Of a stretch of 64,000 nucleotides of DNA, positions 26,528 to 37,660 are shown piece after piece; positions within the stretch are counted from its first letter, which is position 1; each line of letters opens with the position of its first letter. The translations under genes were made by a program, and so were the position numbers. Source of the DNA: an uncultured Chloroflexia bacterium (GTDB taxonomy: Bacteria > Chloroflexota > Limnocylindria > QHBO01); assembly GCA_963805305.1 (NCBI GenBank), contig CAWDTM010000008.1:50679-114678 (forward strand), given 5' to 3'. The notes beneath the pieces were generated by a model. The model saw only the letters and a list, made by a program, of their open reading frames with translations, was not told the DNA's origin and searched no databases.

Positions 26528-27823
26528 TCAGAACAGGCGAAGCAGCGCGGCGAGGAGATCGGTCGGGCGAATCTGCGCGGCCAGGCCGCGTGCCAGGCGT
26601 TCGAGCGTCGGGGCGAGGCGTGCCCGGAACGCCGTGAGACGAGGATCGATCCCGAGCCGCGAGCCGGCATCGCGGGCCAGGGTCGCGTCGAGGGCGGCGA
26701 CCTCGGATGGGCTGGTCGCCACCCGGCCGGACGTCACACCGCCGGACGCGCTGCCGGCGATGTCCCACGGGTCCGCCCATTCCAGGGGTCCCGAGGTCCC
26801 GATCATTGCGTGCGATGGACCCACCGTCGCAGCGGTGGGAACCGGTTCGGCGACCACCGGGGTCGGATGCGCCGGCGGTGGTGGCGGTGGAGCGCTGGCG
26901 TGGGCGACCGTCAGTTGGCCGCCGCCGGGCAGCTGCTGGTCAGGTGGTGGGATGGGCAGAGGCGTCGGGACCGGCGTCGGTCGGGGGGTTGCGGTCGGGA
27001 ACGCCGTTGGTGTCGGTGCGACGGTCGGCGACGGCGTGGCGGTCACCGCGGCCGTGGGTGCCGCCGTCGGGGTGGCCGAGCCACTGGCCGTTGCCGTCGG
27101 CGACGCGGTCGGGACCGGAGACGGCGTCGCCGTTGTCGTGGGGGCGGGGGGTGTTGCCGTGGGCGCCGGTGTTGGTGTCGCCGGTGCTGGTGTCGGCGAC
27201 GTGCCAGGCGCACCGGTGACCGTCACCCCCGGGTAGTAGTAGGCGAGGATGATCTGCGAGGCCGTAAGGCCGGCGAGCCCGCACGCCTGGGTGCCCCACT
27301 GGTAGGCCTTCCAGCCGTTGGCGTTCGCTCCGCACGCCTCGCCGATGTCGCCCGCGTTGTAGTACGTCGGGAAGATGTGCCCGCTCTTGTAGACGCGCCA
27401 GGACCAGGTGTCGTCAACCGCCGCCGCCGCCGTGCTCCACGTCGTCCGTGATGGATCGTAGACCTGGTCCCAGGTGTCGTCGCGCAGGTCGAAGCACTGC
27501 CCGTCGGCGTTGACCCCGCCGCGCCAGTGGAGGACCTGGTACCAGGCGTAGTTGCGCACGGCGAGCGCTCCCGAGCGCAGGGACTCCGTGGTCCAGGAGC
27601 CGATCCACTCGCGGGAGAGCACGTTCCTGGCGTAGGTCTTGAAGTCCACGGTATCGACCGCACCGCTGACATGCCGATACACGCGGATCGTGGGTGGTGG
27701 TGTCGACTCGCTGCTCCACGAGGAGCAGGACGAGGCGGCAACCGGGGACAGGGTGCCGGGCAGCAGCCCTCCGGAGAGCGTGGCGACCGCGAACAGGGCG
27801 CTCGCGACGATGCGGCGTGCCAT
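26528..27823 (-). CDS. Secreted SpoIID/LytB domain protein with Pro/Thr-rich linker
   Basis: Signal peptide, Y..NVLSREW...W..ESL..GALAVRNYA, DQVY, ILAYYYPG, followed by a long PT-rich region. Confidence 0.8.
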   Translation of the reverse strand: MARRIVASALFAVATLSGGLLPGTLSPVAASSCSSWSSESTPPPTIRVYRHVSGAVDTVDFKTYARNVLSREWIGSWTTESLRSGALAVRNYAWYQVLHWRGGVNADGQCFDLRDDTWDQVYDPSRTTWSTAAAAVDDTWSWRVYKSGHIFPTYYNAGDIGEACGANANGWKAYQWGTQACGLAGLTASQIILAYYYPGVTVTGAPGTSPTPAPATPTPAPTATPPAPTTTATPSPVPTASPTATASGSATPTAAPTAAVTATPSPTVAPTPTAFPTATPRPTPVPTPLPIPPPDQQLPGGGQLTVAHASAPPPPPPAHPTPVVAEPVPTAATVGPSHAMIGTSGPLEWADPWDIAGSASGGVTSGRVATSPSEVAALDATLARDAGSRLGIDPRLTAFRARLAPTLERLARGLAAQIRPTDLLAALLRLF

Positions 27824-27882: not shown

Positions 27883-28761
27883 TCAGCCGCTCGCCCAGCG
27901 GTGGACTCGCTCCCGTACACGGTCGAAGCCCAGGTCGGCGCAGAGTGCGACGAAGGTATCCCTCGGAACGCCGGCCCAGGCGAGGTCGTCGAGCGTGCCG
28001 ACAATGGACGCATCGCGGTTCAGCGTCGCCAGCCGACGGAAGAGCAGCGCGTCCGCGCGTTGATCGCGCAGGGTGGCGGCCAGGCGGCTCGCCCCGCGAA
28101 GGGGGATCTCCCAGTCGAGCGGGGATTCGGGGATCGCCTCGAGGCGGCCGAACCGGCCCAGCACGGCCGCGGTGCTCTTCGCACCCCAGCCGGGCAGGCC
28201 GGGATAGCCGTCGGAGCTGTCGCCAACGAGGGCGAGGTAATCCGGGATCGACGCGGGCCGGACGCCCCATTTCTCGACCACTCCCGCCTCATCGTACGTG
28301 ACCCGTCGCATCCGGTCGCGCAGCACGACTCGCCCGTCGTCGACGCACTGGGCAAGATCCTTGTCCACCGAGCAGATGACGATCTGCTCGAGGCGCGCAT
28401 CGGCCCCGAACCGGGCGACCGCGGTGGCGATCCCGTCGTCGGCCTCGTCCTCCACCATGGGCCAGGTCGCGATGCCCAGGGAGCGCAGGGCGCGCTCGGC
28501 GTCCGCGAACTGGGCCAGGAGCTCCTCGGGGACGCCGACGCTGCTCTTGTACGGCGGGTAGATGTCGTTCCGCCAGGACTCGATGACATGATCGGTCGCC
28601 GCCGCGACGTGGGTCACGTCGGGCTCCCGCAGCAGCGAGAGCATGGAGTCGATGAGCCCGCGCACGGCGTTCACCGGCCTCCCGTCGGGTCCTCGCTCGG
28701 CTGGATGCGAGAAATACGCGCGGAACAGCTCGAAGGTCGCGTCGACGAGGTGGAGCTTCAT
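27883..28761 (-). CDS. 5'-3' exonuclease / flap endonuclease (stand-alone PolI N-terminal domain)
   Basis: ATG 28761. LHLVDA, EADD, SVDKDLAQ, LVGDSSDGYPGLPGWGAKS (H3TH). Confidence 0.93.
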   Translation of the reverse strand: MKLHLVDATFELFRAYFSHPAERGPDGRPVNAVRGLIDSMLSLLREPDVTHVAAATDHVIESWRNDIYPPYKSSVGVPEELLAQFADAERALRSLGIATWPMVEDEADDGIATAVARFGADARLEQIVICSVDKDLAQCVDDGRVVLRDRMRRVTYDEAGVVEKWGVRPASIPDYLALVGDSSDGYPGLPGWGAKSTAAVLGRFGRLEAIPESPLDWEIPLRGASRLAATLRDQRADALLFRRLATLNRDASIVGTLDDLAWAGVPRDTFVALCADLGFDRVRERVHRWASG

Positions 28762-28832
28762 CCGCCACGCCCCGGGGCGCGCTCGAGCGGGTTCGGGCCG
28801 GGCGCAAACCCTGCCCGCTGCGTGAACGGCAT
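28758..28832 (-). CDS. Putative leaderless upstream peptide (24 aa) coupled to the exonuclease
   Basis: TACCAT (28844-28839), 6 nt, then ATG. Translation MPFTQRAGFAPGPNPLERAPGRGG*. Its TGA overlaps the exonuclease ATG (ATGA). Confidence 0.4.
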   Translation of the reverse strand: MPFTQRAGFAPGPNPLERAPGRGG

Positions 28833-28890
28833 ACCCCGATGGTACGCGGGCCGGTAAGCGGGCAGTAAGCCACGCTGCACGAAGATTGTC

Positions 28891-28971
28891 CCGCAGGGAG
28901 CCGGCGCGGGCGCGTGCCCTGCGAAGGCCGTGACGGATCACCGTCACGGCCGCCGCGCCGGCTCCTCGCGG
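28891..28971. other. Branched RNA/DNA secondary structure 3' of apbE
   Basis: Outer 13-bp stem GGAGCCGGCGCGG/CCGCGCCGGCTCC enclosing an 11-bp hairpin GGCCGTGACGG-ATCA-CCGTCACGGCC. Confidence 0.6.
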
Positions 28972-28982
28972 CCGGCAAATCC

Positions 28983-29963
28983 TCAGGCGCTGCGCCTGCG
29001 TGCGACCGGGCGCTCCCAGATCGTTGCCGCCCGCGCGGCCGGCGTCATCTCGAGGGTTCCGTCCTCGCGCACCCACCATGCCGCAAGCGACCGTGCGCGT
29101 GCCGCCGAGCCGATCCGCGAGGAGCCCGCCAGGAAGAGCGCCTTTGACCAGACCTCGGCCCACGCGGGGTCCGCGAGCGCGACGGTGACGGCGGCGAGGC
29201 CCTCGCCCCCCGGCTCGCCCGTGCGCGGATCGATCAGGTGATGCACCGGGCGCCCGTCCGGAGCCGTCCAGCGTCGAACTGCGGTCGACGAGGTCGCGAC
29301 CGACGCATTGCGCAGCTCGATGACCGCCATCGGCTCGCCGCCACCATGGGGGTCCTCGATCCCGATCCGCCACGGGCCGCCATCCGGCTGGGGGCCGAAG
29401 GCCACGATATCGCCCCCGGCATCGAGCAGCAATCCGGAGCCGGACGGCAGCGCGGAGCGCGCCACCCGGGCCGCCCAGCGCAACCCGAGCCCTTTGCCGA
29501 CGCCCCCGGAGTCGACCGGCTCTGCAACGCGGATGGCCCGCTCCCGGGGACGCCGCTCCAGCCCGCTGCAGGCATCCACCGCGTTACGCGTGTGCGGCAA
29601 TGCCCGCGGTCCGGGGTCGGGAATCTGCACCCCGGCGCGCTCGCCCAGCTCCTCCAGCCTTCGCAGGACGCGGACGTCGAAGCGGCCGGCCGTGACCCGT
29701 TGGGCGCGGGCAGCCATGGCGACCATGGCGTACAGCCGATCGCCCGCTGGCTGCCAGGCACCGGAACCTGCTCCCCGGTTGAGACGGCTCAGCTCGCTCT
29801 CGCTCCGAAAGCGCGACAGCGCCGCCTCCGTGCGTTCCATCTCCTCGACGACGAGCGCCCACGCGCGGTCAGCGCGCGGTCGCCGGCAATGCACCACCAT
29901 GGCGCGCAGGACCGACCCCATGGCGCGCGTCGAGTACTGCTGAACCCGGACTCGTCCGGTCAC
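28983..29963 (-). CDS. apbE: FAD:protein FMN transferase
   Basis: GTG 29963 after GAAGGGAG. AMGS, LSRFRSESELSRLN, DSGGVGKG, DAGGDI, VATS, HHLIDPRTG. No signal peptide or lipobox visible. Confidence 0.92.
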   Translation of the reverse strand: MTGRVRVQQYSTRAMGSVLRAMVVHCRRPRADRAWALVVEEMERTEAALSRFRSESELSRLNRGAGSGAWQPAGDRLYAMVAMAARAQRVTAGRFDVRVLRRLEELGERAGVQIPDPGPRALPHTRNAVDACSGLERRPRERAIRVAEPVDSGGVGKGLGLRWAARVARSALPSGSGLLLDAGGDIVAFGPQPDGGPWRIGIEDPHGGGEPMAVIELRNASVATSSTAVRRWTAPDGRPVHHLIDPRTGEPGGEGLAAVTVALADPAWAEVWSKALFLAGSSRIGSAARARSLAAWWVREDGTLEMTPAARAATIWERPVARRRSA

Positions 29964-29977
29964 TGGTCTCCCTTCGG

Positions 29978-30409
29978 CTATGGCTTGCCCGATGCTCCGG
30001 TCGTTGCCTGCGTTGCGGGCGCCGTCACGACCACCGTGACGGTCCGGGGTGCCGTCGGCAGCCGTGAGGCGCTCTGCGGGATCCGCGCGGCGGCGCCGGT
30101 GGCGGCCTGCACCTGGGTGGCGAGGGCGGCGACCGATGCCTCGAGGTCCGCGCTGCGCGCCGCTGCCGACCCGTAGGCGCCGGACGCCGCGTTCAGGGAC
30201 TCGACCGTCGCCTGCAGGTCCGTCTCCAGCGATGCCCGGTCGCGCGCGAGTCCCGAGATCGCGTCGGCGAGAGGCTGCTGTGCCGTGCTCGCGACGACAT
30301 CGGCCTGGTGCTGGAGCGCTGTGATGCCGGCAAGCGACACCGCGTACAGGCCTGCCGTAACCCCGAGGGCAATGGGAACGTGGAGCGGGGCCTTCTTCTT
30401 GCCGGGCAT
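29978..30409 (-). CDS. Membrane-anchored coiled-coil protein with C-terminal TGAS flavinylation-like motif
   Basis: ATG 30409 (TGATG overlap). MPGKKK + TM, Ala/Leu heptads, ends APATQATTGASGKP. Confidence 0.75.
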   Translation of the reverse strand: MPGKKKAPLHVPIALGVTAGLYAVSLAGITALQHQADVVASTAQQPLADAISGLARDRASLETDLQATVESLNAASGAYGSAAARSADLEASVAALATQVQAATGAAARIPQSASRLPTAPRTVTVVVTAPATQATTGASGKP

Positions 30410-30855
30410 CAATCGTCGCCCTCGCCACCTTCGCCATACGGCGCGGAGGTTGCGGTTGGAGCGGCGGTCTGGGTCACGACACGCGTCACCGTTGCGGGCG
30501 CGGCCACCGCCTGGGACTCGAGGGCGGCGAGCTTGGCCTGGGCTGCCTTGAGCTGCGCGGCGAGCTGCGCGGCGGCGCCGGCGTCGGTGGTCGCCTTTGA
30601 CTGGGCGGCGGTGAGCGCATCGCTCAGCTGCGCGGCCTGGGCGCTGACCTGGTCGAGCTGCGCACGGAGGGCGGCGCTGCGCGCCTGCTCGTCCCGGAGC
30701 TGGCCCGCCAGGGCCTGTGCGTCGATCGGCTTGGCGGTCAGCGTGGCGTTCGTGCTGGTCCACGCGCTTGCACCGCGCACGACGGCCACGGCGCCAAGGA
30801 GGCTCAGCACGGCGACGATCGCCACCAGGCTACGCCGCGGGGTGTGATCGGACAT
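30409..30855 (-). CDS. Exported coiled-coil protein with acidic Gly tail
   Basis: ATG 30855 after GGAGGA. PRRSL + hydrophobic stretch + ASA, long heptad region, ends GEGGEGDD. Confidence 0.75.
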   Translation of the reverse strand: MSDHTPRRSLVAIVAVLSLLGAVAVVRGASAWTSTNATLTAKPIDAQALAGQLRDEQARSAALRAQLDQVSAQAAQLSDALTAAQSKATTDAGAAAQLAAQLKAAQAKLAALESQAVAAPATVTRVVTQTAAPTATSAPYGEGGEGDD

Positions 30856-31564
30856 CGGATTCCTCCATGAGGTCATGTGCGGGCACCGGCACCAGGACCG
30901 GCGCCCGGCCGGGCAGCTGCGGGACATGGGCACGCCGTTCGGCGCGCCGGCGGACGATCCAGTAGCGGTAGACGGCAGATGCGACGACCACGACCGCGAT
31001 CCCCCAGTAGACGAGCCGAATGGCGCCGGTATCGGTCCCGGAGAGCGCGCCGTGGATCCAGCCCAGGCCAAGGGCCACAGCGGCAAATCGATGCAGCTTC
31101 AACCAGATCCCGGACGGCAGGAGGCGGGTCCAACGAGCGGTCGCCCCGGTGATGAGGGTGGCGTACAGGCCCAGCGATCCCAGGGCCACCGGCACGCTCC
31201 GGTATTTCGAAAGACCGGGGAGCAGCGCGCCCAGGACGTCCACGTTGGCATACGGGTCCAGCAGGATGGCGGCGATGTGCACCCCGAGGAACGCGATGAC
31301 GAAGACCCACAGGGTCTCGTGCCACGGATAGATGCGCTTCGCCTGCTTCCACTGCGCCTGGTCAGGATGGCTCAACGCCAGTCCCAGGACGACCATGACC
31401 GCCAGCAGGACCAGGACCGTGACCCCGGTCGCCCGGGCCGCGAGCCACACGCGCATCTGGGCCTGGTACGGCGTGGCCGGCGGCACGACCTGGTCGGTGA
31501 TGACCAGGATCGCGAGGCCGGCGATGGCGAAGAGGATGGCGAAGGTGCGCGTGCCGAGCTTCAT
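30830..31564 (-). CDS. Ferric reductase-like (MsrQ-type) transmembrane heme protein
   Basis: WLAARATG, four His in TM helices (WHETL, VHIAA, WLKLHRF, WIHGALSGTD). Confidence 0.85.
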   Translation of the reverse strand: MKLGTRTFAILFAIAGLAILVITDQVVPPATPYQAQMRVWLAARATGVTVLVLLAVMVVLGLALSHPDQAQWKQAKRIYPWHETLWVFVIAFLGVHIAAILLDPYANVDVLGALLPGLSKYRSVPVALGSLGLYATLITGATARWTRLLPSGIWLKLHRFAAVALGLGWIHGALSGTDTGAIRLVYWGIAVVVVASAVYRYWIVRRRAERRAHVPQLPGRAPVLVPVPAHDLMEESDVRSHPAA

Positions 31565-31735
31565 GCTCAGTCTGAGGCGCGCGGACGCGCCAAGGTTTCA
31601 GGCTCGTGCCGGACGATCGGCACCCGGGGCTCACATCCGATGGTCCTGCCGCGGCAGCCGAGCCGAATCCCGGCATGCGGGCTTCGCGGCCCTGGCCGAT
31701 CCGCAGGCCCCGCGCCGATATCGCGGGCGGGCAGG

Positions 31736-33484
31736 TCAGACGGCGAGCGGCTCCCGGTATTCGCCGTAGACGCGGCGCAGGATGCCGCACATCTCGCCGA
31801 TGGTGGCGTAGGCCCGCACCGCCTCGACGATGGCCGGCATGAGGTTCACGTCGCCGGCCCGCGCCTCATCCTCCAGGCGGCGCATGGCAGCGGTGTGGGC
31901 CGCCCCATCGCGTTGCGCGCGCGTCCGCGCCAGGCGCTCGAGATGGCGCCGCTCCTGCTCCCCGGTGATCTCGACCAGCGGGATGCGCAGCTCCTCGCTC
32001 GGATCGGCGTAGCGCGTGACCCCCACCAGTTCACGCTCGTGGACCTCCAGCTCTCGCGCCTGCTCGTACGCCGCGTCGGCGATCTCCGCCTGGGGAAATC
32101 CCGCCTCCAGGGCCCTGACCATGCCGCCCATCTCGTCGATGCGGGCGATGTACCGCCATGCGGCCTGCTCCGTGCGGTTCGTGAGCGTCTCCACGAAATA
32201 CGACCCGGCCAGGGGGTCGACGGTGTTTGCCACGCCGGATTCCTCCGCGATGACCTGCTGCTGGCGAAGGGCCAGGAGCGCTGCCTCTTCGGACGGAACC
32301 GCCCATGCCTCGTCGTAGGCATCCGTATGCAGGCTCTGGGTCCCGCCCAGCACCCCGGCGAGGGCCTGGATGGCGACCCGGGTCAGATTGTTGAGCGGCT
32401 GCTGCGCGGTCAGGGACACCCCCGCGGTCTGGGTGTGGAAGCGCATCCAGGTCGATCGTTCGTTCTCCGCCCCGAAGCGTTCGCGGCAGAGCTTGAACCA
32501 GATCCGTCGCGCGGCACGGAACTTCGCGATCTCCTCGAAGAAGTCGTTGTGGCTGTTGAAGAAGAACGAGAGCCGCGGCGCGAAGTCATCGAACCGCAGG
32601 CCGCGCGCCATCGCGTCCTCCGCGTAGGCGATCCCATCGGCGATCGTGAAGGCCAGTTCCTGGACCGCCGTCGATCCGGCCTCGCGGATGTGGTAGCCGG
32701 AGATGCTGATCGTGTTCCAGCGCGGCATCTCGCGGGTGCCCCACTCCACGGTGTCGGTCACGAGCCTGAGCGAGGGGGCCGGCGGGAAGATGTACTCCTT
32801 CTGGGCGATGAACTCCTTGAGGATGTCGTTCTGCAGCGTCCCGGTCAGCTGGGCGCGCGGCACGCCCATCTTCTCGGCGGCGACGACGTACATGGCCCAG
32901 ATCATCGCGGCGGGGGAGTTGATCGTCATGCTGGTGCTGATCTCGCCCACGGGCAGCCCGTCGAGCAGGATCTCCATGTCGGCGAGGCTCGAGACGGCGA
33001 CACCGCAGGTGCCGAACTCGCCCGCGGCGTGCGGATCATCGTGGTCGTACCCGTACAGGGTCGGCATGTCGTAGGCGATCGAGAGCCCTGTCCCACCCTC
33101 CTCGATGAGACGCTTGAACCGCCGGTTCGTGTCCTCCGCGGTCCCGTAGCCGGCGAACATGCGCATCGTCCACGGGCGGCCGCGATGGCCGGTGGGGTGA
33201 ATGCCGCGCGTGAACGGGGGCTCGCCGGGCAGGCCAACGTCGTCGATCTCGTCCCATCCCGCGGCGGCGCCATCGGCGCCCGGGCTGAAGCGGTAGCGGG
33301 GACGTCCCGCATCGGGGTCGTTGGCGGGATCGTGCAGGTCGCTCGGGGTGTAGACCCGGTCGATCTCCACGCCGGACTGGGTGATGAACCGCGCCCGCCG
33401 CTCGCCACCCCGTTCCAGGGCCGGCCGCAACCGTTCGCGCTCCCATGCCTCCTGGTGCTCCGACCACCGCTTCGGATCGCTCAT
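31736..33484 (-). CDS. Methylmalonyl-CoA mutase family, substrate-binding large subunit (isobutyryl-CoA mutase IcmA-like)
   Basis: ATG 33484. [46 protein letters not shown]. No B12-binding domain. Confidence 0.92.
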
Positions 33485-33561: not shown

Positions 33562-34479
33562 TCAGGCGGCGTCCACCACCCACTTGCGCGGATCGCCCGC
33601 GCCCAGGTCGGTGATCCCCGCCGTTGCCAGCGCGCCCAGGACCAGCGTGCGGCGATGCGCCGCGAACGTCAGCACGTGGGCGATGAGCCCTCCGTACGTA
33701 TAGATCTCCGGTGGGTCGCATTGGGCGTCAACGAAGGTCTCGTCCAGGCGTCCCTCGTCGACCACGCGCCGGACCTCGGCCAGGAAGGCGTCCCCCGACG
33801 ACCGCAGGCGGGTGCGCATGCTCGCAATGGACTCGCCACGCTCGATCGCGAAGTCGTAGTCGCGGCTGGCGATCACGTTGTTCCACATGTCCATCTGGCC
33901 GATGAGACGAGAGAGCAGGGTGCGGAGGGTCGGGTCGTCGTCGACGCCCTCCACGGAGAGAGTGATCGGGGCGTCGAGCGTGGCAGCGTCCAGCCTCGCG
34001 GCACGGTCGACGAGCTCGCCGACCAGCCAGACGTGGTGCTCGACCATGCGGACCAGGAGATGCATCGCGGTTACCTCGGTACGGGCGGGCAGCCGGAGGC
34101 CGCCCGGCGGGTGGAAATGCACGTCGGTGGGACAGGAGAGCTGGATCTGGCCGGGCGCTGCGCGCCAGGCCGAGGGAGCGGACCCGTAGGCGCGCTGGAA
34201 TGCCCGCGTGAACGCCTCGTTCGATCCGTATCCGGCCTCCAGGGCGATCTCCAGAATTCCCGCCCGGCTGGTGATCAGCCGGTAGGCGGCGCGCTCCAGC
34301 AGCACGCGGCGGCGGAAGGTGGCCGGCGGCTCGCCGGCCGTTGCGCTGATGATCCGGTCGAAATGGTGTCGCGAGAGATAGGCCCGCGATGCCAGATCGC
34401 CCGCGTCGAGCTCGAGGTCGTCGAGATCCGACGCCACCGAGTCGACGAAGCCGAGGAAGGTGTCCTGCGCCGTGCTCAT
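33562..34479 (-). CDS. AraC-family HTH regulator with C-terminal DinB-like domain
   Basis: ATG 34479. [36 protein letters not shown]-terminal [11 protein letters not shown]. Confidence 0.85.
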
Positions 34480-34597: not shown

Positions 34598-37500
34598 ATG
34601 GCTGTTCGGGGCACGAGCGCAACGTTCATCGGCCGCACCGATGAGCTGGCAACGCTCGATCAGCTGCTCGGAACCGGCGGCGATCGGCTCAGGCTGGTCC
34701 TCATTGGCGGGGAGGCGGGGATCGGGAAGAGCCGGCTCATCGCCGAGTGGGCCGGTCGTGCCCGCGATCGGGGGGCGCTCGTGCTCACCGGCGGCGCCGT
34801 CGACGTGGGGGAGACCGGCGCCCTGCCCTACGTCGCGATCGTGGAGGCCCTCCGGCCACTGACCGTTGATCCGGGCCGGTCTCGCCTCGCGCGGGCGGGC
34901 CCCATCGGCGCCGACCTCACCCGACTGCTGCCTCGTCTGGGCCCATCGCCCACGAGCCGCGCTCCGGTGAGCGGCCTGCCCGAGGAATTCGCGCAGGTCC
35001 GTCTCTTCGAGCAGCTCCTCGCGCTGCTGACCCGGCTGGCGGTGCACACGCCAACAGTCCTGGCCCTCGAGGACCTGCAGTGGGCAGACCAATCCACCCG
35101 CGACCTCCTCGCCTACCTCGCGCACAACGTGGGCGACGCGCCCATCGGCCTGATCGGCAGCTTCCGGACCGATGAGCTCCCGCCCCTCCACCCCATGCGC
35201 GCGGTCCTGGCCCAGCTGATCCGCGGCCGCGGGACGGCACGCATGGACCTGGCACCCTTCGGGCCTGAGGAGCATGCCGCCCATGTCGCGCAGCTGCTCG
35301 GCTCCAGGCCGCCGCCGGCACTGCTGCGCGCCACGTACGCGCGGAGCGAGGGCAACCCCTTCTACACCGAGGAGCTCCTCGCGACCGAGGATCCCGACGC
35401 CGCGCGGCTCCCGGAGTCGCTGCGTGACGCTCTCCTGGTCCGGCTCCGCGAGCTCTCGCCCGCTGCCCGCGAAGTGGTTCGCGTCATTGGTGTGGGCTGG
35501 TCCGTCTCGCATCCGCTCCTGTCGCAGGTCACGACGCTCGACGAGTCGGCTCTCCTCGCGGCCCTGCGCGAGACGGTCGACCGCGCCGTGGTGGTGCCCG
35601 ACCCGCAGACCGGCCGCTACGGCTTCCGTCACGCCCTCATCGCGGAGGCCGTGTATGCGGACCTGCTGCCTGCAGAGCGGAGCCGCCTCCATCGCGCCTT
35701 TGCGGAGGCGCTCGCGGCCGACGCGAACCTGGGCGACGCTTCGCCGGCCCGCGCTGCAGCCGAGCTCGCGAACCACTGGTACGCGGCCGGCGCGATGCGG
35801 CAGGCCCTCCCGGCCCTCGTGGTCGCGGCCGACGAGGCGCGCGGCGTTCACGCCCAGGGCGAGACGCTGGCGCACCTCGTGCGCGCCACGGAGCTCGCGG
35901 ACCGGATCCACGATGCGGGTTCCCTCATACCCCTCCAGCGCTGGGAGCTCGACGCGCGGACGGCGCTCGCCGCCGAGGCGGTGGGCGACTTCGAGCGCGC
36001 CCTCGACAGCTGGCACCAGGCACTCGAGCACGCCGTGGACGCCGGTCACGCGGTGCGCGCCGACCTGCTGGTGCGATTGGGCGAGACGGAGTTCCTGGCC
36101 GGTCGACTCGACGGCCTCGTCGCGGCCCGCCGCGCCGCGGTCGAGCTCGTTCCGGCGGAACCGCCGACCGCGCTGCGGGCGTTCGTCCTGGCCAAGCTCG
36201 CGATTGCCCTGAGCCTTGCCGCCCAGCTGGAGGACGCGCGACCCATGGCGGAAGAGGCGCTCGCCGTGGCGCGTCGGGTCGATGCGCGGCCGGAGGAGGG
36301 CAAGGCGCTGAGCACCCTGGGCACCGTCCTCTACCTCTCGGGTGCATCCGAGATTGCCGTTCGACACCTCGGCGAGGGGCTCGTCATCAGCGAGGAGCTG
36401 GGAAGGTTCGGGGACGAGGCAATCGACCGCTCGAACCTGTCCGAGGCCCTGCACCAGGCGGGCCGGCTGAAGGAGGCGGCGGCCGTGGTCCTCGAGGGGC
36501 TCGAGCGCGCGCGGACAAACGGCCTGGAGCGCACCTACGGGGAGACGATGGGCGCGATCGCGGTGAACTGGCTCTTCCTGCTGGGACGCTGGGACGAAGC
36601 CGAGCGCATGGCCCAGGAGGTCCTCGACCATGCCCCGCGAGGTCTTTCGGCGGACTGGACCGCGATGGCGCTCGCCGAGCTCGAGATCGTCCAGGGCCGC
36701 TTCGACGAGGCAAGCGCCCATCTCGACCGCGTGCTCGACGGCGACCGAAGCGCTCGGACACCGGGCTGGTACGGGCCGCACGAGCAGCGCGCACACCTCC
36801 TGGTGGAGCTGGGCCGGCCCGCGGAGGCGGTCCAGGAGATCCGTGACGCGCTCGACGCGCTGGATCGCATCGGCATCGCCCCCGAGGCCGGCGAGATCCG
36901 TTGGCTCGCCATTCGGGGCATCCAGGCGGTGACCGACCTTGCCGGGTCGCCACGGGCCCGTGCGGACCAAGCACTGCCAGCCGGCGCCGCTTCGCTCGTC
37001 GACGATCTGCTGGCCCGGGTCGACGCCCACCTCGCCGCGGTCCGGAACCTCGCGGGCCACCTGGATCCGCACACCGCCTGTGACGCGCTCCTGATCCAGG
37101 CGGAGCTCACCCGGCTGCGCTGTGAGCCGGACCCCCGTCTCTGGCGCCGGGTCGCCGACCAGTTTGCGGCCATGGACCACGCGTGGGACGAGGTCGACGC
37201 CCGCTGGCGCCAGGCGGAGGCGCTTCTCCTCGCCGGTCGCCCGCGCTCCGCGGCCGCCGGCCCCCTGCGGGCCGCGCACCGAGCCGCCAAGACCCTGGGT
37301 GCCCCGCCCACGCTGGCGAGGATCGAAGCCCTCGCGAAACGGGCCAGGATCCGCCTGGAACCGGCTCCGGGACCTGCGGCCGACGGAGCGCTGCCGGGCG
37401 GTGGGGTCGTGGGTGACGACGGCATTGCCGATCGGGTCCGCCGGCTCACGCCGCGCGAACGGGAGGTCCTCGCGCTGCTCGCCGGCGGGCGGGCGAACCG

Positions 37501-37660
37501 CGAGATCGCGGCAACCCTGTTCATCAGCGACAAGACGGCCAGCGTCCACGTGACCAACATCAAGGAGAAGCTCGGGGTGCGGACCCGGGTGGAGGCGGCG
37601 GCGCTCGGCATTCGACTCGGGATCGGGGAGGCGACGGCGGGATCCGACGGGTCGACCTAA
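34598..37660 (+). CDS. Large ATP-binding LuxR-family (LAL/MalT-like) transcriptional regulator
   Basis: GEAGIGKS Walker A, LEDLQWAD, EGNPF, TPR region, C-terminal LTPREREVL..NREIA..LFIS.KT..VHV..KLG. Confidence 0.95.
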   Translation: MAVRGTSATFIGRTDELATLDQLLGTGGDRLRLVLIGGEAGIGKSRLIAEWAGRARDRGALVLTGGAVDVGETGALPYVAIVEALRPLTVDPGRSRLARAGPIGADLTRLLPRLGPSPTSRAPVSGLPEEFAQVRLFEQLLALLTRLAVHTPTVLALEDLQWADQSTRDLLAYLAHNVGDAPIGLIGSFRTDELPPLHPMRAVLAQLIRGRGTARMDLAPFGPEEHAAHVAQLLGSRPPPALLRATYARSEGNPFYTEELLATEDPDAARLPESLRDALLVRLRELSPAAREVVRVIGVGWSVSHPLLSQVTTLDESALLAALRETVDRAVVVPDPQTGRYGFRHALIAEAVYADLLPAERSRLHRAFAEALAADANLGDASPARAAAELANHWYAAGAMRQALPALVVAADEARGVHAQGETLAHLVRATELADRIHDAGSLIPLQRWELDARTALAAEAVGDFERALDSWHQALEHAVDAGHAVRADLLVRLGETEFLAGRLDGLVAARRAAVELVPAEPPTALRAFVLAKLAIALSLAAQLEDARPMAEEALAVARRVDARPEEGKALSTLGTVLYLSGASEIAVRHLGEGLVISEELGRFGDEAIDRSNLSEALHQAGRLKEAAAVVLEGLERARTNGLERTYGETMGAIAVNWLFLLGRWDEAERMAQEVLDHAPRGLSADWTAMALAELEIVQGRFDEASAHLDRVLDGDRSARTPGWYGPHEQRAHLLVELGRPAEAVQEIRDALDALDRIGIAPEAGEIRWLAIRGIQAVTDLAGSPRARADQALPAGAASLVDDLLARVDAHLAAVRNLAGHLDPHTACDALLIQAELTRLRCEPDPRLWRRVADQFAAMDHAWDEVDARWRQAEALLLAGRPRSAAAGPLRAAHRAAKTLGAPPTLARIEALAKRARIRLEPAPGPAADGALPGGGVVGDDGIADRVRRLTPREREVLALLAGGRANREIAATLFISDKTASVHVTNIKEKLGVRTRVEAAALGIRLGIGEATAGSDGST

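Follow-up and report, generated by a model that had tools for sequence, protein, structure and literature searches.

A lineage-restricted four-gene module of Limnocylindria with an ApbE gene and a putative flavin acceptor site on a domain-less protein tail

Can a covalently bound flavin be carried on the bare tail of a protein instead of in a folded flavin-binding domain? This question is raised by a locus in a 64,000-nucleotide (nt) stretch of DNA from an uncultured Chloroflexia bacterium (contig CAWDTM010000008.1 of assembly GCA_963805305.1; hereafter, the window, in which position 1 is the first letter). Four genes of this locus, all on the minus strand and with a local G+C content of 72–73%, encode a membrane cytochrome-like protein, two small coiled-coil proteins, and an ApbE-family flavin adenine dinucleotide (FAD):protein flavin mononucleotide (FMN) transferase. 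The first gene, P0001 (30830–31564), encodes a six-helix cytochrome b-like membrane protein of 244 amino acids (aa), of the ferric-reductase-domain (NOX/STEAP/MsrQ) type; it is followed by P0002 (30409–30855; 148 aa, starting with MSDHTPRRSLVAIVAV and ending with GEGGEGDD), P0003 (29978–30409; 143 aa, starting with MPGKKKAPLHVPIALGV and ending with APATQATTGASGKP), and the ApbE gene (28983–29963; 326 aa from the GTG at 29963). A preliminary description of the window, made from the letters, had called attention to a 143-aa membrane-anchored coiled-coil protein with a terminal T-G-A-S, and P0003 is that protein. The reading that we favor, with moderate confidence, is that the four genes form a module in which Ser140 of P0003 would be flavinylated by the neighboring ApbE, with no folded flavin domain.

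The candidate acceptor, P0003, is predicted by AlphaFold 2 (AF2) to consist of a single helix spanning residues 10–108 and a 35-residue coil (predicted local distance difference test, pLDDT, 88.5); the N-terminal membrane helix runs unbroken into a long stalk helix, and the end of the tail reads ATQATTGASGKP. The tail of the window protein is an exact match to the [ST]GA[ST] motif, T-G-A-S, with Ser140 in the acceptor position; the codons for T136-T137-G138-A139-S140 occupy 29990–30004 on the minus strand (read directly from the sequence), and the codon of Ser140, the proposed FMN attachment site, occupies 29990–29992. The search of Pfam with P0003 retrieved no family up to an E value of 1, and that of NCBIfam produced only faint sub-threshold matches. 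Around the motif, neither these two databases nor the AF2 model indicated any of the known flavinylated folds (FMN_bind, NqrB/RnfD, DUF2271, Flavodoxin_4, FMN_red). Because P0003 is predicted as a helix followed by a coil, the motif would be located on a domain-less tail, in agreement with the preliminary description, which had placed it on a flexible tail with no folded domain. That description had also reported the lack of FMN-binding, MsrP, and NADH-binding domains, and the Pfam and NCBIfam searches concur: FMN_bind, MsrP, and NAD/FAD domains were found in none of the four proteins. Nor was MsrP found in the genes flanking the operon, the rest of the genome not having been searched for it. 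A separate feature of P0003 is His10 (30380–30382), located just before the membrane helix and invariant in the 35 closer homologues.

The four genes form a genuine and conserved module that is restricted to one lineage. Of 401 genomes sampled from the phylum, 18 contain a match to the P0003 profile; the 15 strong matches all come from the class of the window, and the remaining three, from other classes, are weak and partial and cover the coiled coil only. Among 41 close relatives, P0003 is present in 14, including all seven other genomes of the genus, and the P0003-related public records belong to Chloroflexota metagenome-assembled genomes labelled Candidatus Limnocylindrales or uncultured Chloroflexia; on this ground, an actinobacterial origin of the window, which had been considered, was discarded. 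The four-gene order is kept in all 12 loci from close relatives wherever the contig allows. In 60 further loci, a P0001 homologue lies upstream without exception, and ApbE lies downstream in 56 of the 57 loci with sufficient room (the other three end too early). P0002 was detected by tblastn in 47 of the 60 loci, and 11 of the 13 misses were inspected, each showing an open reading frame (ORF) of the same architecture. Spurious high-GC reading frames were considered and ruled out by the amino-acid-level conservation across these 60 loci and 306 cluster representatives. In the window, P0001 and P0002 overlap by 26 nt and P0002 and P0003 by 1 nt, and the ApbE start lies 14 nt past the P0003 stop; the “overlapping minus-strand operon” of the preliminary description is thus accurate as to the four genes and two of the three junctions, and not as to the P0003/ApbE junction.

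The conservation of the terminal motif, on which the preliminary description had made its proposal depend, is borne out for the acceptor position and, for the motif as a whole, in most of the family. All 34 homologues with 35–91% identity to P0003 end in TTG[AG]S followed by one to four residues, with T136, T137, G138, and S140 invariant; in the count of close homologues, TTG[AG]S occurs in 35 of 35. A profile search against 1.84 billion cluster representatives yielded 306 proteins at E≤1e-3, of which 251 also passed E≤1e-10; almost all are about 140 aa long. Among the best 150 of these, 114 carry [ST]G[AG][ST] near the C-terminus. In an alignment of 86 diverse homologues (28–85% identity), L26 and S140 alone are invariant (the latter in 86 of 86), with T137, A139, and G141 retained in at least 90% of the sequences. 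The P0003 tail is intact in 52 of the 60 loci, being apparently frameshifted in six and running off the contig in two; 37 of the intact tails are canonical [ST]G[AG][ST], 51 fit the relaxed pattern [STC]x[AGP]SG, and 14 contain a Cys pair around the Ser. As judged from these alignments, conservation within the tail is highest at Ser140, the proposed target of ApbE, and the motif Gly is not universal. As a rough background rate only, 20 of 4281 ORFs of this genome contain [ST]G[AG][ST] within their last nine residues (ORFs with the longest start and at least 0.85 G+C in third codon positions, a set in which P0003 is not listed, nor is the small protein of the second ApbE cluster described below). 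One sub-clade (L025, L026, L031, L036, L038, L046, L048–L050, L054, L056–L058, and L066) has Gly-less tails of the form [NH]ACT[TK][AG]SG..C, with a Cys on either side of the Ser, possibly a disulfide-closed loop; many of these loci contain the canonical HATTGASG on the P0002-like partner instead.

The enzyme encoded downstream is readily recognizable as a member of the ApbE family (PF02424, E 8.7e-46; its 157 bits exceed the cut-off of 25.6). Its score against the NCBIfam equivalog NF007774, 72.6 bits against a cut-off of 498, identifies it as a family member and not as the E. coli-type equivalog. Residues 8–303 align with the solved structures 1vrm (E 2.3e-22) and 3pnd (E 4.8e-21), including the HH-x-x-DP-x-TG stretch, the His of which, following the ApbE review considered below, we take to be the general base. 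ApbE and P0003 co-occur: all 14 genomes with P0003 encode ApbE, and P0003 is found in none of 13 genomes without ApbE, although these related genomes are not independent.

The preliminary description would have been abandoned if ApbE acted only on an FMN-binding-domain protein encoded elsewhere, a possibility weakened on two counts. First, the sole FMN_bind (PF04205) gene of the genome is located on another contig with an ApbE gene of its own adjacent, and each of the three ApbE genes in the genome sits in its own cluster. Second, four relatives (G009, G016, G022, and G028, respectively 80, 94, 79, and 95% complete) possess the module with its ApbE and no detectable FMN_bind; of these, G028 also lacks PF03116 and PF10029, and G016 and G022 show weak PF03116 matches. 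The canonical cluster with the FMN_bind gene (L004; contig C3 of the same genome, about 124.7–128.1 kb) comprises a ferric-reductase/FAD/NAD fusion only partly included in the locus, an FMN_bind protein with an N-terminal anchor and SGAT, a leaderless ApbE, and, downstream, a gene resembling those for extracytoplasmic function sigma factors. The remaining ApbE cluster, also outside the window (contig C2, about 272.2–276.0 kb; L002 830–2669, minus strand), encodes a small, N-anchored, Ser/Thr-rich protein ending in GRAHATGGGS, a leaderless ApbE, a Ferric_reduct paralogue of P0001 with the same four His, and a NuoF-like protein (Complex1_51K). In 13 of 17 related loci, among them L088 from the unpublished genome G011, the small protein terminates in GGS or SGS, its final residue being Ser; of the other four, two are at contig ends and two show none or a different gene order. 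By sequence, this small protein beside ApbE appears to be a parallel case of a terminal-Ser tail. Elsewhere in the genome (contig C8, 147890–148648), a 577-aa open frame matches NQR2_RnfD_RnfE weakly (19.2 bits, short of the cut-off) and may encode an Nqr/Rnf-like flavinylated membrane protein.

P0001 is modelled as a six-helix bundle (AF2, pLDDT 80). Two His of helix 3 (H82 and H96) and two of helix 5 (H158 and H171) are invariant in all 36 aligned sequences, including the same-genome paralogue, and, given the model, the four are predicted to hold two hemes across the membrane. The scores against Pfam fall below the cut-offs (Ni_hydr_CYTB, 30.0 against 30.1 bits; Ferric_reduct, PF01794, 20.2 against 28 bits); PF01794 is matched at E≤0.01 by 14 of the 36 family members, and the paralogue from the second cluster passes with 35.5 bits. 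Of the “MsrQ/ferric-reductase-like” protein with four transmembrane His proposed initially, the His residues stand, and the class label rests on topology, His pattern, and fold because P0001 scores below the Pfam cut-offs. In the fold comparison, Foldseek with the P0001 model gave no match at E≤1e-3, the best rows being DUOX1 (1.2e-2), NOX5, and STEAP1, and VIA-align gave Z scores of 12.2 for STEAP1 (root-mean-square deviation 4.8, 190 aligned residues), 11.9 for STEAP2, 11.3 for STEAP4, 10.8 for cytochrome b561, 9.9 for NOX5, and 9.8 for SpNOX, values under about 13 being common for helical bundles. All of the top 11 VIA-align rows are heme-containing transmembrane electron carriers. The P0001 family profile produced only weak matches to the sequences in the PDB, the best relevant one being SpNOX (E 0.12). 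Apart from the His residues, the family shares a short outer loop just past the outer-heme ligand H171, [SA]-G-T-D (residues 175–178, 31030–31041), with G176 and D178 invariant and T177 present in at least 90% of the sequences; it is kept in the paralogue, its residues 177–178 touch P0003 in the complex model described below, and it may contribute to a site for flavin or metal.

The second small protein, P0002, consists of a twin-arginine followed by a hydrophobic segment, a coiled coil, a Thr/Ala/Pro linker, and an acidic tail ending in Asp-Asp, and produced only weak coiled-coil noise in the Pfam and NCBIfam searches. In 26 aligned sequences, R7, R8, W32, P43, D147, and D148 are invariant, an A-x-A-W signature is conserved after the hydrophobic segment, and the tails are acidic or His-rich in all 26, always with DD at the end. 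The size, the coiled coil, and the GEGGEGDD end given for this protein in the preliminary description are correct; it may or may not be “exported,” as the N-terminus combines RR, a hydrophobic stretch, and A-x-A-W, and yet is modelled as a membrane helix. The sequence has the RR before a mildly hydrophobic segment that is expected of a substrate of twin-arginine translocation (Tat), and TatC is encoded in the genome (E 8.7e-64). The N-terminus may be either a signal anchor or a Tat-type signal. P0002 and P0003 are not significantly similar in a BLASTP comparison (E 1.7), and tblastn cross-matches without composition correction (E 1e-5 to 1e-11) may be compositional. In the clade in which P0003 ends with NACTTASGKPC, the P0002-like protein often contains HATTGASG just before the acidic tail. 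Given the shared architecture and the presence of this motif on the P0002-like protein of the sister clade, the two proteins look like diverged paralogues, in which the motif can sit on either or both.

The modelling of the three membrane proteins together, which the preliminary description had suggested as a check, supports a ternary complex of the cytochrome with the two stalks: P0001, P0002, P0003, and two hemes reach an ipSAE of 0.84, against 0.01 for the best control. In the calibration of the tool, its mark was reached by 58 of 80 solved complexes and by 2 of 110 mismatched pairs, counts that are only rough here given that custom alignments were used and heme was included. The runs agree in at least 69% of the contacts, and the partner pLDDT is at least 70. 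In the model, residues 7–34 of P0003 pack against helices 1–3 of P0001 with the P0002 helix alongside, and residues 36–116 of P0002 and 37–110 of P0003 are in heptad-like contact, as a parallel coiled coil. The P0003 7–34 segment also touches P0001 residues 80–85, next to the inner-heme ligand H82. The distribution of positive charges in P0001 (N-terminus, loops 64–80 and 145–157, and C-terminus) predicts that these parts are inside and loop 24–40 is outside, and in the model the stalk is predicted to emerge outside, on the side of the H96/H171 heme. The tail is predicted to lie outside because of this positive-inside pattern, the side of the stalk in the model, the Pro/Thr-rich linkers, and the Cys pairs found in 14 of the 52 tails.

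Under the reading that we favor, P0001 would be a two-heme transmembrane electron conduit, on which the N-terminal helices of P0002 and P0003 would pack, continuing outward as a parallel heterodimeric coiled-coil stalk. On the flexible tail of P0003, Ser140 of T-T-G-A-S-G would be esterified with FMN by the neighboring ApbE, and the FMN would hang on a peptide tether, with no folded FMN-binding domain to house it. The electrons would come from a donor in the membrane or cytoplasm that is not encoded here, probably menaquinol, and would travel through the inner heme, the outer heme, and the tethered FMN to an extracytoplasmic acceptor. The most likely use would be the reductive acquisition of a metal, for example, Fe(III) or Mn(III/IV), and the acidic tail of P0002, with its Asp-Asp, would bind the cation. 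The preliminary description had called the system “minimal”; in the sense of complete, it is not, the operon containing no gene for an electron donor.

Several observations weigh against flavinylation of the tail. In 36 of the 150 representatives and 15 of the 52 loci, T, A, R, K, C, N, or S stands in place of the motif Gly (for example, HATTRASGG and NACTTASGKPC; 34 of the 36 Gly-less representatives retain [AP]-S-G, as read by eye from the printed tails). Known substrates have Asp at the start of the motif; the window has Q134 there, and among 114 tails the residue is H in 55, Q in 19, N in 16, S in 10, V in 5, D in 4, T in 3, and R and Y in one each. Some loci (L046, L048, L054, and L057) have no canonical motif on either protein and nevertheless keep ApbE; L061 encodes the tail protein with no ApbE within 4 kb downstream. 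One low-depth soil RNA-library contig, filed twice under separate runs, contains an additional nucleotide within the codon of T137 (29999–30001) that would shift the frame of the motif and may be an assembly error or a variant. In the complex model, the P0003 tail (residues 111–143) is given no confident position, and the model thus supports no docking site for it. Finally, the window ApbE has no signal peptide or lipobox and starts about 14 residues before the MGS motif; this short leaderless N-terminus is fixed by a Shine-Dalgarno-like run, GAAGGGAG (29968–29975, minus strand; read directly from the sequence), that sits 5 nt before the GTG. Among the ApbE orthologues, 54 of 55 likewise lack a hydrophobic segment upstream of MG[ST], so that a leaderless enzyme is confronted with a tail predicted to be outside the cell.

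These points leave some room for the most serious alternative, one that we consider unlikely, in which the T-x-A-S-G tail is not an ApbE site and is instead a docking peptide or the target of another modification (O-glycosylation or phosphorylation), and the operon ApbE serves a different substrate, flavin trafficking, or FAD hydrolysis, as with some ApbE/Ftp proteins. An ApbE homologue has indeed been described as an FAD pyrophosphatase in part of the account in PMC4767422; also in favor of this alternative are the missing Asp, the replaceable Gly, and an ApbE that is cytoplasmic by sequence with a tail predicted to be external. The parts of an ApbE review that deal with the motif (PMC12052999) cut both ways. 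Gly-to-Ala substitution is stated there to lower flavinylation; the Asp is called strictly conserved, yet Asp-to-Ala has minor effects only; and the seven residues of the motif are enough, a terminal position gives the best tagging, Ser can serve as acceptor, and some ApbEs are cytosolic. The case for modification of the tail by ApbE is built on the exact [ST]GA[ST] in the window, the modifiable Ser as the sole invariant residue of the tail, and the adjacency of ApbE in 56 of 57 loci, with the Gly-less clade included. In addition, Pfam and NCBIfam searches revealed no other candidate substrate in the operon, [ST]GGS is likewise the end of a second family of small proteins, unrelated to the first and encoded next to another ApbE, and G028 encodes the module without any of PF04205, PF03116, and PF10029. 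As for the compartments, none of the three ApbE proteins of this genome has a leader, and this holds also for the one encoded next to the N-anchored canonical FMN_bind protein; because this canonical cluster shows the same mismatch, we regard it as a property of the lineage and not as evidence against the operon. One way out, which we put forward as a hypothesis, is that the flavin is loaded in the cytoplasm and that the RR of P0002 then directs export by the Tat system.

The proposed use in metal acquisition is a separate matter. Directly upstream of the module and on the same strand, 38 of the 60 loci encode a ZnuA-type importer (ZnuA, PF01297; an ATP-binding cassette (ABC) ATPase; and an ABC-3 permease, PF00950), in two gene orders. 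Because of this importer and the acidic, His-rich tails of P0002, the comparison of loci points to reductive metal acquisition as the function of the module. A flavinylated tail could also, with lower probability, serve no metal reductase at all and act more generally as an outlet or inlet for extracytoplasmic electrons, for example in the reduction of O2 or quinone-like soil compounds, in the support of a wall redox enzyme, or in MsrPQ-like envelope repair. In favor of such uses, and counting against the metal assignment, the importer is not adjacent to the module in this genome, where the copy found is about 115 kb from the operon, or in L018–L024, the seven loci most similar to the window (P0003 61–85% identical), and flavinylated systems have several different uses, as stated in sections of the survey of Meheust et al. 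(PMC8238504). The direct upstream position of the importer in two gene orders, the P0002 tails, and the failure to find MsrP or another terminal enzyme in the operon speak for the metal. Overall, the preliminary reading is partly supported; it had overlooked the leaderless ApbE, the invariant RR and DD of P0002, and the importer upstream in 38 of 60 loci.

The reversed topology, in which the stalk and the tail are cytoplasmic, the tail is flavinylated in place, and the tethered FMN feeds the inner heme, replacing the FAD/NAD(P)H domain of NOX or the FMN of MsrQ and the flavin cofactor of STEAP, would suit the lack of a signal peptide in 54 of 55 ApbE orthologues and of a cytoplasmic donor domain in the operon but is improbable given the positive charges of P0001, which put loop 24–40 and hence the stalk outside, the basic N-termini before the helix in both P0002 and P0003, the Pro/Thr/Ser-rich linkers, the Cys pairs around the Ser in 14 of 52 tails, suggestive of a disulfide in an oxidizing compartment, the export-type N-terminus of P0002 (RR and A-x-A-W), and the canonical FMN_bind protein of this genome, which is likewise N-anchored beside a leaderless ApbE.

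The module resembles several known systems, none of them fully. Six helices and paired His in helices 3 and 5 are features of the NOX/STEAP/MsrQ superfamily, from which the module differs in having neither an FAD/NAD(P)H domain, fused or as a partner, nor an MsrP in the operon, and in the P0001 scores, which fall below the Pfam cut-offs. MsrQ contains one heme and FMN, according to part of PMC12525009, whereas P0001 has four invariant His. A genomic parallel exists with the “MsrQ-like” clusters of Meheust et al. (2021, eLife, PMC8238504), in which, as far as the sections on these clusters go, apbE lies by a gene for a six-helix, two-heme ferric-reductase-type protein, transmembrane electron transfer to an extracytosolic flavin is proposed, and some clusters are linked to iron uptake. 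Those clusters as a rule include a gene for an FMN-binding domain, frequently accompanied by an NAD-binding domain or a NuoF-like protein; the present operon has none of these, and its candidate for carrying the flavin is a coiled-coil protein in which the motif stands on a bare tail. The same sections indicate that ApbE and FMN_bind genes without a predicted signal peptide were discarded and that the class was defined by PF01794, a criterion that P0001 misses (20.2 against 28 bits). In the FMN_red proteins (Huang et al. 2024, mSystems, PMC11334425), the flavinylation motif is also on an unstructured C-terminal extension; in the part of that work describing them, the tail returns to the conserved flavin site of a folded reductase, a domain that P0003 lacks. 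The synthetic Flavin-tag (Tong et al. 2021, as related in part of PMC12052999) is similar in that a terminal seven-residue motif is used with no native flavin pocket; it is engineered and starts with Asp, in contrast to the P0003 tail, which is natural, conserved, Asp-less, and part of a putative electron-transfer operon. In the portions of the literature found that describe ApbE substrates, the flavin is buried in a folded domain (FMN_bind, NqrB/RnfD, DUF2271, Flavodoxin_4, or FMN_red), and a domain-less tail substrate was not found described in full texts, supplementary tables not being covered.

Pairs of the FtsB/FtsL type are likewise two small proteins with an N-terminal membrane helix and a coiled coil, side by side. 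P0002 and P0003 differ from these in the lack of a cell-division context, in the operon shared with a cytochrome and ApbE, and in the conserved C-terminal tails.

In this genome, the operon is flanked by genes for methylmalonyl-CoA mutase and a 5'-3' exonuclease. The 171-nt spacer between the mutase gene and P0001 (31565–31735, minus strand) is, from its position only, the presumed operon promoter region; a consensus scan of 28700–31800 detected no sigma-70-like promoter or terminator. Contigs from soil RNA libraries cover parts of the operon (424 nt over 29968–30390 and 198 nt over 31231–31428), which is no proof of transcription, and the uncovered parts of the operon are uninformative; the contigs come from four soil metatranscriptome runs of two studies, and the runs X1/X2 and X3/X4 look like duplicate filings. 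Further along the window, the minus strand encodes a 431-aa protein (26528–27823) in which a SpoIID domain (E 3e-9) precedes an extended low-complexity region rich in Pro, Thr, and Ala. A divergent pair of regulator genes lies upstream of the mutase gene, one for an AraC-type regulator (33562–34476, minus) and one for a 1020-aa AAA_16/TPR/LuxR (MalT-like) regulator (34598–37660, plus).

The coiled-coil stalk beyond the membrane (about 76 residues) and the P0003 tail up to Ser140 (about 32 residues) would each be about 11 nm long by the textbook rise per residue. There is a bolder version of the favored reading, which we hold to be doubtful: a pocket-free FMN on a disordered tail atop an 11-nm mast, loaded in the cytoplasm and exported folded as a Tat “hitch-hiker” by means of the RR of P0002. 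If the FMN is tethered in this manner, it would swing from the outer heme to acceptors up to about 20 nm away, in or beyond the wall, because tail and mast are about equally long; if the loading is of the hitch-hiker kind, there would be no need to export FAD.

If flavinylation of the tail holds true, the module would be a natural counterpart of the engineered Flavin-tag principle and would add a tethered-shuttle mechanism to the extracytoplasmic electron transfer of monoderm soil bacteria. It would also expose a blind spot of domain-based surveys, which filter out leaderless ApbEs and rely on Pfam. With leaderless ApbE genes beside exported substrates, the place and time of flavinylation relative to export become testable in this lineage. 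The link to the ZnuA-type importer, for its part, suggests a reductive route of Fe or Mn acquisition in an abundant, uncultured lineage of soil bacteria.

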